From Escherichia coli (GTDB lineage: Bacteria > Pseudomonadota > Gammaproteobacteria > Enterobacterales > Enterobacteriaceae), in assembly GCF_024298765.1 (NCBI RefSeq), contig NZ_CP101210.1: 64,000 nucleotides of DNA. One strand, given 5' to 3'. Of this stretch, positions 5,451 through 63,006 are shown piece after piece (within the stretch, counting starts at the first letter, position 1; each line of letters starts with the position of its first letter). The notes below the pieces were generated by a model. It saw only the letters and a list, made by a program, of their open reading frames with translations. It was not told where the DNA came from and ran no database searches. Made by a program: the position numbers and the translations under genes.

Positions 5451-7207
5451 TGGCAAAAGTGGCTGACGGGATCCGCTACGCCGAACGTGTTGTTGCAGGA
5501 GAAATTGTTGCTGGCGAATTTGTCCGCCTGGCCTGCCAGCGTTTTCTTGATGATCTGAAGTACGGCGAAGAGCGGGGGATTTATTTCAGTGAACCCCGTG
5601 CGCAGCACATCCTGAATTTCTACAAATTTGTGCCTCATGTAAAAGGGGCGCTGGCAGGCCAGCCCATTGAGTTGATGGACTGGCATGTATTTATCCTCAT
5701 TAATATTTTTGGTTTTGTCATTCCGCTGGTCAATGAAGAGACCGGGGAAGTTGTCATGCGCAGCGATGGCAGCGGACGTCCGGTGATGGTGCGCCGGTTC
5801 CGGACGGCGTACAACGAAGTCGCCCGTAAAAACGCAAAATCAACTCTGTCATCGGGTATCGGCCTGTATATGACGGGGGCAGATGGTGAAGGCGGAGCTG
5901 AGGTGTATTCAGCCGCAACCACGCGTGACCAGGCCAGAATCGTGTTTGAAGACGCCAAAAATATGGTCAGAAAAGCCCGGTCGACACTCGGGCGGTTGTT
6001 TGATTTCAACAAGCTGGCGATTTACCAGGAGCAGAGCGCATCAAAATTTGAACCGCTTTCTTCGGATGCAAACAACCTAGATGGTCTGAACATCCACTGC
6101 GCCATTATTGATGAGCTGCATGCACATAAAACCCGTGACGTGTGGGACGTTCTGGAAACGGCAACCGGTGCCCGTCTGCAGTCCCTTTTATTTGGTATCA
6201 CCACGGCAGGGTTTAACAAGGAAGGGATTTGTTACGAGCAGCGTGATTACGCCATCAAGGTATTGCGTGGCTATAACAGCGACGTGGAGGGCGCGGTAAA
6301 AGACGACTCCTACTTTGCGATTATTTACACCCTCGATGAGGGAGATGATCCGTTTGATGAAACGGTCTGGCAGAAAGCGAATCCCGGCCTGGGCATCTGT
6401 AAACGCTGGGATGATCTGCGTCGCCTGGCGAAAAAAGCGAAAGAACAGGTCTCTGCGCGGGTGAATTTTTTTACCAAACACATGAATGTGTGGGTAACAG
6501 CAGAGTCTGCCTGGATGGACATGATTAAGTGGGAGAAGTGCGAATACATTGCCCCACGACATGAGCTGAAAACGTATCCCATGTGGGTCGGCGTTGACCT
6601 TGCTCATAAGATTGATATCTGTGCGGCGGCAAAACTCTGGCGAACGGATAACGGGCATGTTCATGCCGATTTTAAATTCTGGCTTCCGGAAGGACGGCTG
6701 GAACGATGCTCGCGGCAGCAGGCAGAACTTTACCGGAAGTGGGCGGAGATGGATAAGCTGATTCTGACGGATGGTGATGTTATCGATCATGCTCAGATAA
6801 AAAGTGACTTACTGGAATGGATTGGTGGTGAAAACCTCAGGGAACTGGGATTTGACCCGTGGAGCGCGATGCAGTTCAGCCTGGCACTGGCTGAAGAAGG
6901 GATACCGCTGGTGGAGGTTCCGCAGACGGTTCGCAATCTGTCAGAGGCCATGAAGGAAACGGAATCACTGGTCTATGCCGGGCGTTTCCATCACAGCAAT
7001 CATCCGGTCATGAACTGGATGATGTCTAACGTTACGGTAAAACCGGACAAAAACGACAATATCTTCCCGAATAAATCCACGCTGGAAGCCAAAATCGACG
7101 GCCCTGTTGCGATGTTTACAGCAATGAGCCGGATGCTGGTCAATGGTGGTGAACCGGAGCTGGATCTGTCTGAACATCTGGTCAGCGTGGGCATCCGCTC
7201 GCTTTAA
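5450..7207 (+). CDS. Terminase large subunit
   Basis: 585 aa, ATPase plus nuclease architecture, positional. Confidence 0.9.
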
Positions 7208-54323: not shown

Positions 54324-57648
<3,325 letters not shown>

Positions 57649-57862
57649 CGCGCACCTCGTGGCTGATTATGGACGGCGTTATTGGCAAAGTGGAACAAGA
57701 CTCACTCCCGGGTCAGCAAACTCGAAAAATTGACGCTCCCATTATTTGTGCTTTCGTTTTTTTCTATCCGCCAATAAACCCGTTTTTTTGTTGCTATTTA
57801 GCGCCTTTGTCTTATTGACTTACTGGTAGGCTTTGCTACCAGAAATTATCCGGGAGATGAAA

Positions 57863-58177
57863 ATGTCAGCGATACAGGGGATTGAAGGGGTTATCAGCCA
57901 GTTACAGACCACGGCGATGAGTGCGCGTGCGCAGGAATCACTGCCGCAACCGACAATTAGTTTTGCCGGGCAGCTGCACGCCGCGCTCGATCGCATAAGC
58001 GATACACAAACAGCCGCCCGCACGCAGGCAGAAAAATTCACCCTCGGTGAGCCCGGCGTGGCGCTAAACGATGTGATGACCGATATGCAAAAAGCCTCAG
58101 TTTCTATGCAAATGGGGATTCAGGTGCGTAATAAGCTGGTGGCGGCGTATCAGGAAGTGATGTCCATGCAGGTGTAG
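57863..58177 (+). CDS. fliE: Flagellar hook-basal body protein FliE
   Basis: 104 aa from [15 protein letters not shown]; divergent from fliF. Confidence 0.95.
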
Positions 58178-58520
58178 GTTTTGTAACCTGTTGACTATGC
58201 TTGTTTATTATATCCGATCCCACAGCGTGGGGCATGGATGGGGCAAACTCACTCAATTTCTGGTTTAAAATGGATACCTGATCCTGAAAGTTTTCTGCCA
58301 TCCACGATCCGTAAACGCGATAACATGTTTTGTCTTCGCTTTGCTCCCAGGAAGAGTGAACTCATTCGTTAGCCTGGGGTTCCTTCTGATCATTATTGTT
58401 CCTGCCTTTATCTCTTGCCACGCCAGAGCCCCCTGGATACACATACACCAGGATGAAAACGGTGAGTTGTGTTCAAACTGTAGTACAATTCTCTCCAGTA
58501 TGAACAGGAAAGAATATGCT

Positions 58521-58853
58521 ATGAACCCTTATATTTATCTTGGTGGCGCAATACTTGCAGAGGTCATTGGTACAACCTTAATGAAGTTTTCAGAGGGGTT
58601 TACACGGTTATGGCCCTCTGTTGGCACAATTATTTGCTATTGTGCATCATTCTGGTTATTAGCTCAGACGCTGGCTTATATACCTACAGGGATTGCTTAT
58701 GCTATCTGGTCAGGCGTCGGTATCGTTCTGATTAGTTTGCTTTCCTGGGGATTTTTTGGTCAACGACTGGACCTGCCAGCTATCATAGGCATGATGTTGA
58801 TTTGTGCCGGTGTGTTAGTCATTAACTTGTTGTCACGAAGTGCACCGCATTAA
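58521..58853 (+). CDS. emrE: Small multidrug resistance efflux protein EmrE
   Basis: 110 aa, near-identical to K-12 EmrE as recalled (MNPYIYLGGAILAEVIGTTLMKFSEG...). Confidence 0.9.
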   Translation: MNPYIYLGGAILAEVIGTTLMKFSEGFTRLWPSVGTIICYCASFWLLAQTLAYIPTGIAYAIWSGVGIVLISLLSWGFFGQRLDLPAIIGMMLICAGVLVINLLSRSAPH

Positions 58854-59021
58854 AAAATAATTATCCTTGAGATAACAGGAATCTGATTTGTGCATATTAT
58901 GGCTAATGTTCGGGGCACCTTTATAATTATGATTGCATTTGCGCGATCATTGCGCCTTTATGCATAATGAGATCAAGGCACATCAAATAAAATAACGATA
59001 GGTCACAACAATGAGGTTTTT

Positions 59022-59573
59022 ATGAAAAAACTTATCGTTTCAAGTGTATTGGCATTCATAACATTTTCTGCGCAGGCCGCAGCATTTCAGGTCACTAGTA
59101 ATGAAATAAAAACAGGAGAGCAACTTACAACGTCTCATGTATTTTCTGGATTTGGGTGTGAAGGTGGTAATACATCGCCCTCATTAACCTGGTCTGGTGC
59201 TCCTGAAGGCACCAAAAGCTTTGCCGTAACTGTGTATGATCCAGATGCTCCTACAGGCAGTGGATGGTGGCACTGGACTGTTGCTAATATTCCAGCAACT
59301 GTAACATATTTGCCCGCTGATGCAGGAAGACGTGATGGTACAAAACTTCCGACTGGTGCTGTTCAAGGCCGAAATGATTTTGGTTATGCAGGATTTGGTG
59401 GAGCATGTCCTCCCAAAGGAGATAAACCCCATCATTACCAGTTTAAAGTATGGGCTCTAAAAACTGATAAAATTCCTGTGGATTCTAATTCCAGCGGAGC
59501 GTTAGTTGGTTATATGCTTAATGCCAATAAAATTGCAACCGCTGAGATAACACCAGTTTATGAGATAAAGTAG
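59022..59573 (+). CDS. ybcL: PEBP/YbcL-family periplasmic protein
   Basis: Signal peptide; near-identical to DLP12 YbcL as recalled. Confidence 0.85.
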   Translation: MKKLIVSSVLAFITFSAQAAAFQVTSNEIKTGEQLTTSHVFSGFGCEGGNTSPSLTWSGAPEGTKSFAVTVYDPDAPTGSGWWHWTVANIPATVTYLPADAGRRDGTKLPTGAVQGRNDFGYAGFGGACPPKGDKPHHYQFKVWALKTDKIPVDSNSSGALVGYMLNANKIATAEITPVYEIK

Positions 59574-59582
59574 GGTAAGAGT

Positions 59583-60380
59583 ATGCTGGCAAAAGATAAG
59601 ACTAACCTAAAGATTGAAGAAATACGGATGCATAAACATCATGAGATTCACAGGGTTAAGCCTCTTATGCCAGCTTTATGTCGTATCCGTCAGGGAAAAA
59701 AAGTTATCAATTGGGAGACGCATAGTCTAACTGTTGATAATAATCAGATAATATTATTTCCCTGTGGATATGAATTTTATATTGCGAATTATCCAGAAGC
59801 AGGTCTTTATCTTGCAGAAATGCTTTATTATCCCATTGATCTAATTGAAAAGTTTCAAAAATTTTATGCGATAACTGATCAAATTCGTAACACGACAGGT
59901 TTCTGCTTACCTCAGAACCCCGAGTTAATATATTGTTGGGAGCAACTAAAAACATCTATTTCCCGAGGCTTCTCAACGCAAATTCAGGAACACTTAGCAA
60001 TGGGCGTTCTACTTTCATTAGGAGCACATCATGTTAATTGTTTACTTTTATCAGATAGTAAACAATCATTAATAAGTCGTTGTTATAACCTAATGCTATC
60101 CGAACCTGGAACAAAATGGACAGCAAACAAGGTAGCGAGATATCTCTACATTTCTGTTTCCACATTGCATCGCCGTCTGGCAAGCGAGGGAGTAAGTTTT
60201 CAAAGTATATTGGACGACGTGAGGTTAAATAATGCGTTGTCTGCTATACAAACGACAGTAAAACCCATCAGCGAGATTGCCAGGGAAAATGGTTACAAGT
60301 GTCCTTCTCGTTTTACTGAAAGGTTCCATAATCGTTTTAAGATAACACCAAGAGAGCTAAGAAAAGCGTCCAGAGAGTAA
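59583..60380 (+). CDS. ybcM: AraC-family transcriptional regulator (DLP12 YbcM-like)
   Basis: C-terminal AraC-type HTH; position after ybcL. Confidence 0.8.
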
Positions 60381-60536
60381 AAGTATTTTATGAAGGAGCA
60401 ACAGCATCGATTTTTATTTTGGAAAATAAATACGGCATACTCAACCTATTGGAGTCTGAACAATCCGGTGACTTCTGCGCTAATCGGGGACGTTTCTAAG
60501 CACATATAATTGATACTATCTTCCTCCATCACAATT

Positions 60537-60890
60537 TCAGAAATGCACGTGTGATTTTTTTGCATCCGGCGTTTGGACTATGTGGAGCTCAAGAGTGGGA
60601 AAGTTACAAGAGGTTGAGGGGATAATTAAAGGGATGCTTATGACATTAGATATCCGGTTAGGTGCGGATATCGTTGTTATTAAATCTAGTTGATACGTTA
60701 AGATGCAGCTACTGACAAAATAGCCAGGACTCCACAAAACGCCTTTGTCGTAATACCTGACTGCAATATCTGGTCGATCTCGTCGCAGTAACCTACTCGA
60801 TACGCCTTTGAGGCTGTTTACCAGACTGGATATCGCCAGTTTGGGAGGATAGTTAATTAACAAATGGACGTGATCTGGTCCGCCATCCAT
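60537..60890 (-). pseudogene. IS200/IS605-family TnpA (HUH transposase) remnant, 5'-truncated
   Basis: HVHLL HUH motif and KGxSSR segment present; N-terminal ~55 aa missing; divergent C-terminus. Confidence 0.65.
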
Positions 60891-60991
60891 TTCAACCCGT
60901 TCAGCTTCAAAATCAGCACATACATTTGAAAAGTAAGTGCGTAGTTTTTCTGTCGCGTCATGGTCAAAAATCTGACGTCGGTATTTAGAGC

Positions 60992-61797
60992 CTATCCCAA
61001 TAGGGTTTTGTTCCAGACAATGACACCACAGGCAAAATGCAGCATCGCCTCATAATTCTCGACCTTCTTCTCCCAACGAGTCAGGACACGGCGGTAGCGA
61101 TTCATCCAACTGTGTGTTCTCTCTACAACCCAGCGGTGAGCCTTAAAATCCGTGTATTTGATGGCCTCTGACTCATCCTTTCGTGACTGGATATGAGGTT
61201 CATAGCGACGACTTTTCAGATACGATTCCAGCCATTCCGCTTCATACCCTTTGTCCATGCACAACCGGAGCCTCTTGCCCGGTCTGCCCGTCTGGAGGGC
61301 ATCGAGCGTATCCGTAACCAACTTTATGTCGTGCGTATTTGCTCCGGCAACAACCAGTGCAAGCGGTAGCCCGTTCCCGTCAGTCATCAGACTGCGCTTT
61401 ACGCCCTGTTTCCCCCGGTCTGTAGGGTTCTTGCCTGTTTTTTTGAGCCTGCCAGCGGTGATTTGGTTATACAACCATCCATCGACAGCCACGACCAGTC
61501 AATAGAGTCCAACTGTTCGCAAGCAAGCAACCCATTTTACCAGAAGCGTTCAAATACTCCGGCATCTCGCCACTCCTGAAATCGGCGATGAGCAGAGCTT
61601 GACGAGCATATACCGGTGGCATTCAGCGCATTCCATTGGCAGCCCGTCCTGAGTACGAAGAAAATGGCGTTCATTGCAGCGCGATTATCAACCCGCTTGC
61701 GGTGCGTACCCAGCGGGTGTTGAGTTTTATGCTCCGGGATGAGTGGAGCCATTTTCTCCCAGAGTCCATCACTGATCTGCCACTTGTTGCCCGCCAC
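60992..61797 (-). mobile_element. IS5-family insertion sequence transposase, split into two ORFs (61537-61797 N-terminal HTH part; 60992-61492 DDE part)
   Basis: N-terminal ...LRTGCQWNAL...RFQEWRDAGVFERFW and C-terminal HRWVVERTHSWMN motifs typical of IS5 family; the two ORFs are separated by an in-frame stop, not a simple slippery-site overlap. Confidence 0.7.
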
Positions 61798-61943
61798 ACT
61801 TCGCCCTCAGAAATTATCATATTGTATTATCTGACAATTCCTTTTGGGATAGGTTCTTAGTAACGAAGACTAGGTGAACATGCTTCAGGAAAACACAATG
61901 CCTTCCGCGTCGGATATCGGTTTCTTTTTTCATAGGCCAAAGT

Positions 61944-62285
61944 ATGATTTGGCCCATGAAACGACTACAGGCATTCAAATTCCGGTTAAGACCAGGTGGT
62001 CAACAGGAGCGTGAAATGAGGCGCTTCGCAGGCGCATGTCGTTTCGTTTTCAATCGTGCTCTGGCGCTTCAGAATGAGAATCATGAGGCCGGTAATAAAT
62101 ACATCCCTTACGGGAAAATGGCTTCCTGGTTGGTTGAGTGGAAAAATGCCACTGAAACGCAATGGCTTAAAGATTCGCCCTCACAGCCATTGCAACAGTC
62201 ACTGAAAGACCCTGAGCGGGCTTACAAAAACTTCTTCCGGCTTCGTCACCACGCTCAAACGGTGTGCTACCTATCGCGGCTATAA
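61944..62285 (+). pseudogene. IS200/IS605-family TnpB N-terminal fragment (about 98 aa of roughly 400)
   Basis: MKRLQAFKFRLRP...RFVFNRALA...AYKNFF signature then loss of similarity. Confidence 0.65.
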
Positions 62286-62664
62286 AAACAGCTTGTCCAT
62301 CAGCACGATAGATAAAATAAGGCTGCTTTTTGTCGCCTTCTTTTTTCCACTCAAACCAGCCATCGGCAAAACAGATTGCCCGACCATGTTGCCAGAGCGG
62401 TTTAAACATGTGACTGGTTGCGGCAGTTTCTACGCGGGCGTTAATCAGCGGCGGTTTATCCCACCATCCGGGAGCATATCCCCAGAAAACCGGATCCAGA
62501 TGAAGGTGTTCATCACGTTCACTGAGCAGAAGGACTTTGGTTCCCGGCGCGACGTTGTATCTGCCAATAGGTTCGGGATCGTAGGGAATATCGCGTTCAA
62601 TATCTTCCGCGAGAAGCGCAAGGTAATCTTCACGCGTTTGGGATTGGGCAAAGCGTCCACACAT
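62167..62664 (-). pseudogene. yedK: SOS-response-associated peptidase YedK (SRAP/HMCES-like), 3'-truncated at about 62238 by IS remnant
   Basis: N-terminal MCGRFAQ (Cys2 nucleophile) and first ~142 aa YedK-like; ORF then reads into IS sequence and stops at 165 aa (K-12 YedK about 222 aa as recalled). Confidence 0.7.
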
Positions 62665-62772
62665 AGAAACCTCCTGAGGTCACACTGAAAAGAATAGGAG
62701 AGGGGGCGGGTTAAATCTATGTGATAGAGAGGCAACGATATTCCCGCTGTGGGCCACAGCGGGAATGAGGGA

Positions 62773-63006
62773 TTACTTCTGAATTAAATAACGAATGGTC
62801 GGCCCGTCTTGCTGAATATCCAGCACCGTATAGCCGTGATTACGCGCATCCAGTGGAATATTATTGATCGACTGCGGACAGTCGCTCACCACTTCCAGGA
62901 TCTCCCCTTTTTTTAACTGCGGCATCGCCTCAAGGGTTGCGACTGCCGGATAAGGGCAGGGTTCACCCACCATATCAAGACGGTAATCAGGAACGATATT
63001 TTTCAT
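62773..63006 (-). CDS. yedF: TusA-like sulfurtransferase YedF
   Basis: 77 aa with CPxP motif. Confidence 0.9.
   Translation of the reverse strand: MKNIVPDYRLDMVGEPCPYPAVATLEAMPQLKKGEILEVVSDCPQSINNIPLDARNHGYTVLDIQQDGPTIRYLIQK

Follow-up and report, generated by a model that had tools for sequence, protein, structure and literature searches.

In Escherichia coli K-12, the genes emrE, ybcL, and ybcM belong to DLP12, a prophage at the tRNA gene argU whose order runs from intD to renD and then through emrE, ylcJ, ybcK, ybcL, ybcM, ylcH, the nin genes, and quuD to nmpC. A second K-12 remnant, annotated as "cryptic prophage PR-G", lies between fliE and yedK and consists of intG', yedN/yedM, and yedL. 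We analyzed a stretch of 64,000 nucleotides of another E. coli genome (NCBI RefSeq assembly GCF_024298765.1, contig NZ_CP101210.1; hereafter the window), in which the DNA following fliE carries emrE, ybcL, and ybcM. A preliminary description of this locus had given the K-12 content of the fliE-yedK interval, which is correct for intG, yedN, and yedL; it had also proposed a decayed prophage remnant at the same hotspot that differs from the K-12 one. The latter proposal is well supported by a separate attachment core, integrase and Q antiterminator remnants, a DLP12-like gene order, and complete prophages at the same site. On sequence comparison, we consider it very probable that the segment from 58158 to approximately 62226 is the decayed remnant of a separate, old, lambdoid DLP12-like prophage.

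The left boundary of this island is a putative attL core, TGATGTCCATGCAGGTGTAG (58158-58177, plus strand), which coincides with the final 20 bases of fliE, stop codon included. This sequence is identical to the 20-base core of Escherichia phage IdasGreatGrand (PP925829; L012 2981-3000), where it is located just past the integrase stop codon, and the similarity extends further into the island, with 58158-58323 being 97% identical to the IdasGreatGrand attP core and integrase 3' end (L012 2981-3147). An integrase gene had initially been reported as missing; pseudogene fragments of one are in fact present on the minus strand at 58195-58430, beginning 18 bases past the fliE stop codon. The first (58195-58340) is a C-terminal fragment covering approximately residues 387-434 that is homologous to K-12 intG and represents the same remnant; in tblastn, it matches residues 387-433 of the IdasGreatGrand integrase at 38 of 47 positions (E 1e-22). 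The second (58319-58430) is an internal fragment of approximately residues 233-277 (tblastn E 1e-10), for which blastn aligns 58319-58428 with L012 3492-3607 of IdasGreatGrand at 74% identity. Residues 278-386 are deleted between the two. Homology to K-12 is continuous from 57500 to 58324, through fliF and fliE and into intG, and C-terminal residues 383-434 of the integrase are kept in K-12, Q65, and O157. Two further candidates for the type of this integrase were ruled out, as the remnant has no significant similarity to IntD of DLP12 or to the integrase of the Escherichia albertii island described below.

The flank search for att-like repeats that had been suggested earlier was successful on the left side in the window, and the right copy was found only in relatives. 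In the window the core occurs once, with 0 occurrences expected by chance. A second copy, matching at 19 of 20 positions, is located at the opposite end of the island in Nissle 1917 (L006 11391-11410), KFu015 (L007 10178-10197), and a metagenomic contig (L008), and homology to K-12 restarts at the base right after this copy, 16 bases beyond the yedK stop codon. From their sequence and position, the two copies in these three sequences are the predicted attL and attR, and as these bound the island, fliE and yedK would have converged on each other in the pre-integration state. Comparison with KFu015 indicates that the right copy was removed by deletion in the window lineage. The metagenomic contig, SFGN01000137.1 ("MAG: Lachnospiraceae bacterium"), is 5.2 kb long and 99-100% identical to the Nissle region from fliE-emrE to yedK; it is E. 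coli DNA that was misbinned into a Lachnospiraceae metagenome assembly.

The interior of the island follows DLP12. As first described, emrE, ybcL, and an AraC-type ybcM lie beside fliE on the plus strand, in that order and at the positions originally given, and are followed by insertion sequence (IS) remnants, yedK, yedF, and yedE. The emrE module (58445-58853) comprises emrE itself (58521-58853) and 76 upstream bases that begin at the phage ren end, and the ybcL-ybcM module (58867-60587) comprises an upstream region, ybcL (59022-59573), ybcM (59583-60380), and a ylcH-like tail. The emrE block (58445-58862) is 91.6% identical to DLP12 (L003 5240-5655) and the ybcL-ybcM block (58867-60587) is 89.8% identical (L003 7739-9459), and the upstream stretches common to both elements are conserved as well (58445-58520 before emrE and 58867-59021 before ybcL). 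The reported absence of ybcK was correct: the two blocks are separated by 4 bases, compared to 2084 bases holding ylcJ and ybcK in K-12. The next homology is a fragment of the 3' end of a lambdoid Q antiterminator gene (60597-60701, plus strand), which shares 82% identity with the quuD 3' end (L003 11242-11342) and approximately 83% with the Q genes of phages ev243, 2G7b, ev207, and ev017. The order of DLP12 is thereby kept in the window up to the Q fragment, and the porin gene is lost. In Nissle the colinearity with DLP12 reaches further, at 85-92% identity, through the ren end, emrE, ybcL-ybcM-ylcH', the quuD 3' end, the porin, and the porin upstream region; the nmpC-like porin gene there is intact, on the opposite strand, and placed after the Q homology, and the porin is also found in UTI89. 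The G+C content drops from approximately 0.55 in the fli genes to 0.36-0.44 over 58200-60800, and RefSeq names emrE, ybcL, and ybcM at the fliE position in every annotated record inspected.

This arrangement is the lambdoid one, with cargo between ren and the nin/Q region and homology that starts at the last bases of renD. In living lambdoid phages including Lambda_4C10, 4A7, 1W, 3W, Perceval, PhiR34_1, and others, emrE directly follows ren, and some of the phages that carry emrE also carry ybcL-ybcM at approximately 90% identity. Lambda_4C10 has the order ren, emrE, a ybcK-size gene, a hydrolase gene, the nin genes, Q, and the porin gene, and the general order in living phages is ren, emrE, ybcK, variable cargo, nin genes, Q, and porin. 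The genes that survive in the island are phage accessory genes: DLP12 and living phages alike carry them between ren and the nin region. O157:H7 strains carry emrE-ybcK without ybcL. A search of genome contigs with YbcM returned four loci, among them the E. albertii type strain, NBRC 107761, in which an island of approximately 7.2 kb (L010 7268-14482) splits the sapABCDF operon between sapB and sapC, both of which still give full-length matches. This island contains a complete integrase of 409 residues, emrE, ybcL, ybcM, an OYE-family reductase gene, a lactonase-like gene, and a LysR regulator gene; its emrE-ybcL-ybcM segment lacks ybcK, with 82-85% identity to the window as well as to DLP12. 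The varied combinations indicate that emrE, ybcK, and ybcLM behave as separate mosaic modules. Loss of ybcK as a deletion specific to the fliE locus was considered and rejected as the most straightforward account, because E. albertii also lacks the gene and phages mix the modules; the order without ybcK is the commoner state and not a locus-specific loss.

The distribution of this arrangement was measured among 5426 complete E. coli genomes. The fliE-emrE junction was present in 2619 of these, from diverse lineages and at 95-100% identity, and the direct emrE-ybcL junction without ybcK in 2627. At least 80% of 57800-62800, representing the form with the IS605-family element and truncated yedK, was covered in 2136 genomes. 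The K-12 order emrE-ylcJ-ybcK-ybcL was found in 671, and about a third (1722) gave no match to the emrE-ybcL junction query. Judging from the identity bands of the junction searches, 2295 genomes would have the fliE-type copy only, 1410 would have a DLP12-type segment, roughly 330-380 would have both copy types, and 1721 would have neither. Most genomes with the fliE island have no DLP12-type copy, leaving the fliE locus as their only emrE-ybcLM copy. Carriers include sequence type (ST) 131, Nissle 1917, UTI89, and strains labeled ST648 and APEC. A search of the available literature found no description of the fliE-locus island or of a fliE attachment site.

The site has also received other elements. 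Nearly all of the other genomes have fliE, the same integrase fragment, and then K-12-type content, as in K-12, ATCC 8739, and O157:H7. In O157:H7 Wll001 (L005 12145-16189), the unit of integrase fragment, espR (encoding a type III secretion system effector-like LRR protein), and yedL occurs twice in tandem beside fliE (espR4, espR3). The tandem has the look of a small element that either integrated twice in succession or was duplicated, and it suggests a separate integrative element at the fliE site. An int-xis query from IdasGreatGrand was at least 80% covered in eight genomes, six of which have int and xis beside fliE (three at approximately 98% and three at approximately 79% identity to the query). 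In NZ_OZ040490.1 (L016 501-40719), fliE and the old emrE-ybcL-ybcM remnant are separated by a complete prophage of approximately 40 kb, which runs from integrase to tailspike, has a P22-like structural module, and demonstrates tandem use of the site. The fliE end is therefore a still-active attachment hotspot. Next to yedK, the homology between K-12 (L002, approximately 6490-6520; also L004 and L005) and the emrE type breaks at the same base, and K-12-type genomes have CAGTATTGTTGATCA beside yedK in place of the 20-base core.

Given two types of content at one site, it is possible, if somewhat doubtful in our view, that, of the two states of the fliE-yedK interval, the emrE-type remnant came first and was replaced later by the K-12 type (int', espR/yedN, yedL) in lineages including K-12 and O157. 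Both types share the same C-terminal integrase fragment and the same two chromosomal breakpoints, and the emrE type keeps a right core copy and recognizable phage remnants, while K-12 lacks the right core. The spread of the emrE type through diverse lineages at high identity fits this order of events, and the tandem int'-espR-yedL units of O157 are as expected of a separately integrating element. However, the fliE-yedK interval was compared within E. coli, which does not reveal the direction of change: the reverse sequence of events and two separate integrations agree with the data just as well, and phylogroups were assigned from strain names and not from a tree. The preliminary description had named, as a finding that would count against its proposal, that this arrangement is the common ancestral configuration with K-12 as the derived state. 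It is indeed the commonest configuration, at 2619 genomes against 671 for the K-12 order, and may be the ancestral one.

The divergence of the cargo genes from their DLP12 counterparts bears on where the island came from. The copies had been called near-identical to those of DLP12, which overstates the likeness: DNA identity is 91.9% for emrE, 94.9% for ybcL, and 91.2% for ybcM, and the proteins match those of K-12 at 108 of 110 (EmrE, 98%), 177 of 183 (YbcL, 97%), and 244 of 265 residues (YbcM, 92%). At third codon positions, the differences from K-12 amount to 22.5% in emrE, 12.5% in ybcL, and 16.5% in ybcM, as compared to 6.7% in fliE, 5.4% in fliF, 3.9% in fliG, and 2.6% in yedF; the divergence of the cargo is 3-5 times that of the flanking core genes. 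This excess indicates that the fliE-locus and DLP12 copies separated well before the host chromosomes did, and the pattern fits separate acquisition from diverged phages. In emrE, 25 of the 27 base differences fall at third codon positions and only two amino acids are changed, indicating purifying selection on both copies.

These figures speak against an alternative that extends one raised in the preliminary description, namely that emrE, ybcL, and ybcM moved from DLP12 at argU to fliE by recombination or transposition and lost ybcK on the way, which we regard as very improbable. The three genes do stand in DLP12 order and orientation, and IS elements adjoin the island. However, a relocated segment would not be expected to differ from DLP12 by 5-9% overall, and by several times the flanking core genes at third positions, or to come with an attachment core, an integrase remnant, and a Q remnant of its own. 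The ybcK-less order is also not peculiar to the fliE locus, as E. albertii has it at a third location. A donor copy is lacking as well: in genomes that are 100% identical to the window over 5 kb, such as strain 104, the 5-kb query matched a single place, which means that those genomes hold no DLP12-type copy. This absence is meaningful, since megablast is able to pick up the DLP12 copy in strains of K-12. Misassembly joining two unrelated loci, which had also been considered and for which the only possible source of error would be IS fragments misleading the assembler, has a negligible probability, since dozens of complete, independent genomes match 57800-62800 colinearly at 100% identity and the 2136 genomes noted above cover at least 80% of it.

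Several points weigh against a separate DLP12-like prophage as the source of the island. The window has neither the right attachment copy nor any complete phage gene, so that recognition of a prophage depends on relatives (Nissle and KFu015) and on short remnants, approximately 90 codons of integrase and approximately 100 bases of Q. The integrase remnant resembles the integrases of IdasGreatGrand and P22-like prophages, but the cargo and the Q and porin sequences resemble DLP12, and the island may combine two elements that entered one site in succession instead of stemming from a single phage. K-12-type genomes share the integrase fragment, carry espR/yedN-yedL, and lack the right core copy, which implies that a single integration does not account for the full history of the site.

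If the island does derive from such a prophage, its formation would have begun with integration of the phage at the 20-base core, in the last codons of fliE, by site-specific recombination through a tyrosine integrase; the phage would have supplied an equivalent fliE end, which accounts for an intact fliE. We infer the following order of deletions. Most of int, everything from int to the ren end, the nin region, and most of Q would have been removed, together with all lysis and structural genes. In the window lineage, an IS605-family element would then have inserted at the yedK stop codon, after which one deletion would have joined the Q fragment to the IS605 interior with loss of the porin-upstream remnant, attR, and the left end of the IS. 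A second deletion would have taken the 3' part of tnpB and 79 codons of yedK, the 3' third of the gene, and an IS5-family element would have landed in tnpA later.

At the right end of the island, an IS200/IS605-family remnant occupies 60705-62226. Its tnpA is on the minus strand and is split at 60987/61857, its tnpB is represented by the 5' part on the plus strand, and the element lacks its left end and the 3' part of tnpB. NCBIfam models identify both genes (IS200 tnpA, E 1.3e-18; TnpB, E 2.4e-21), the pieces align to a complete element in KFu015 (L007 10332-10611 and 10615-10995), and the RefSeq annotation of strain 104 concurs. The element inserted in tnpA (60988-61856, minus strand) is of the IS5 family and has a transposase in two open reading frames separated by a frameshift (NCBIfam transpos_IS5_3, E 4.3e-46 and 8.6e-27), terminal inverted repeats at 60978-61004 and 61840-61866, and a TTA target duplication present at both ends. 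ST131 strain 2822 has otherwise the same structure, with tnpA annotated as uninterrupted and no IS5-family gene there. Homology to K-12 resumes at 62227 with yedK (62227-62664, minus strand), the right chromosomal flank of the island, which is 3'-truncated to 143 of 222 codons; it matches positions 1-143 of 222 of NCBIfam model PRK09951 at 324.6 bits, below the cut-off of 349. RefSeq marks yedK as a pseudogene missing its C-terminus and lists yedK with the same truncation for ST131 strain 2822. The yedK gene encodes an SOS-response-associated peptidase, which shields abasic sites. All 2136 genomes counted above for 57800-62800 (coverage of at least 80%) should share the truncated gene, which would leave a large part of the species without an intact yedK. 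On the other side of the island, fliE occupies 57863-58177 on the plus strand, and fliI, fliH, fliG, and fliF lie on the minus strand at the window end. An Rfam scan of 57600-62800 at E values up to 0.1 matched no family.

EmrE is a proton/drug antiporter, a multidrug efflux pump of the SMR family. The protein encoded in the window matches NCBIfam EmrE model NF042984 over residues 1-110 at 240.5 bits (cut-off 226) and has the membrane-embedded Glu14 (E at position 14 of MNPYIYLGGAILAEV), and this full-length match and residue predict that it is an SMR efflux transporter. YbcL matches NF007330 (YbhB/YbcL PEBP/RKIP-like) over residues 1-183 at 401.8 bits (cut-off 277). YbcM, encoded directly downstream of ybcL, has an AraC-type C-terminal helix-turn-helix domain at approximately residues 153-263; its matches to AraC-family models are all below the equivalog cut-offs, and no YbcM-specific model exists. 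The ybcLM pair encodes a periplasmic PEBP/RKIP-like protein and a putative AraC-type autoregulator. K-12 YbcM binds upstream of ybcLM, and deletion of ybcM lowers survival in H2O2 8-fold (PMC8464067); DNA binding is known for the K-12 protein only (PMC8464067).

YbcL of uropathogenic E. coli UTI89 has been reported to suppress neutrophil migration, with one residue separating active and inactive variants (reviewed in PMC4810123). At precursor residue 99 (codon 59316-59318 in the window), YbcL has A in the window, ST131, and KFu015, T in UTI89 and Nissle, and V in K-12 and E. albertii. This position is probably residue 78 of the mature protein and the one reported to decide neutrophil suppression. 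UTI89 YbcL is encoded at the fliE locus, so that it comes from a different element and should not be regarded as just another allele of the DLP12 gene of K-12, and the common A99 variant may be worth functional interest.

The recurrence of this cargo and its position next to fliE suggest a joint scenario that we put forward only as a speculation, and an unlikely one: emrE with ybcLM may be selected cargo fixed independently at no fewer than three Escherichia loci (argU, the fliE end, and sapB/sapC of E. albertii), and emrE may receive partial read-through from the flagellar class 2 fliE promoter. Both genes are on the same strand, with emrE 343 bases downstream of fliE, and in a consensus scan of 58100-60800 the single terminator-like hairpin was inside the Q fragment, with none between fliE and emrE. 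The same scan returned five promoter-like sites against 8.7 expected and was uninformative, and any expression of the cargo at this locus is something that we infer. In ST131, UTI89, and related lineages, read-through of this kind would couple drug efflux with the motility regulon. Independent of this scenario, the counts correct a K-12-centered view, as emrE, ybcL, and ybcM belong to an element other than DLP12 in about half of the complete E. coli genomes. Surveys of resistance genes should regard emrE as accessory cargo of prophages that is found at two or more chromosomal positions.

Compared to described elements, the island is closest in its interior to DLP12, with the same cargo in the same order and orientation, homology that begins at the ren end and continues into the Q 3' end, and colinear blocks that are 82-92% identical; the fliE islands of Nissle and UTI89 add an nmpC-like porin gene on the opposite strand after Q. 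In contrast to DLP12, it is attached at the fliE 3' end in the fliE-yedK interval and not at tRNA argU, its integrase is unrelated to IntD, it has neither the ylcJ-ybcK segment nor the nin genes, its DNA is 5-10% diverged, and it is much more widespread than the K-12 arrangement. By its site, its integrase, and its lack of ybcK, the island is not a member of DLP12 proper, but its way of working is like that of DLP12. With PR-G of K-12 it shares attachment at the fliE stop codon, the C-terminal integrase fragment, and the right breakpoint 16 bases beyond the yedK stop codon; unlike the island, PR-G has a type III secretion system effector-like espR/yedN pseudogene and the GNAT gene yedL, no emrE-ybcLM, and no right 20-base core.

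Among living phages, IdasGreatGrand has the identical 20-base core and an integrase 3' end that is 97% identical to the window. No single phage among those listed combines an IdasGreatGrand-type integrase with emrE-ybcLM, and Lambda_4C10 has its ybcK-size gene after emrE. The living phages are complete at 45-50 kb, whereas the window keeps approximately 2.5 kb of phage-derived DNA. The sap island of E. albertii NBRC 107761 differs in its location inside the sap operon, an unrelated integrase, extra cargo, and no lambdoid remnants seen, and resembles the window in having emrE, ybcL, and ybcM in the same order without ybcK at 82-85% identity. Taken together, the comparisons place the locus in a well-known kind of feature, a prophage remnant with accessory genes at a hotspot, and its arrangement is common in the species and not unusual.

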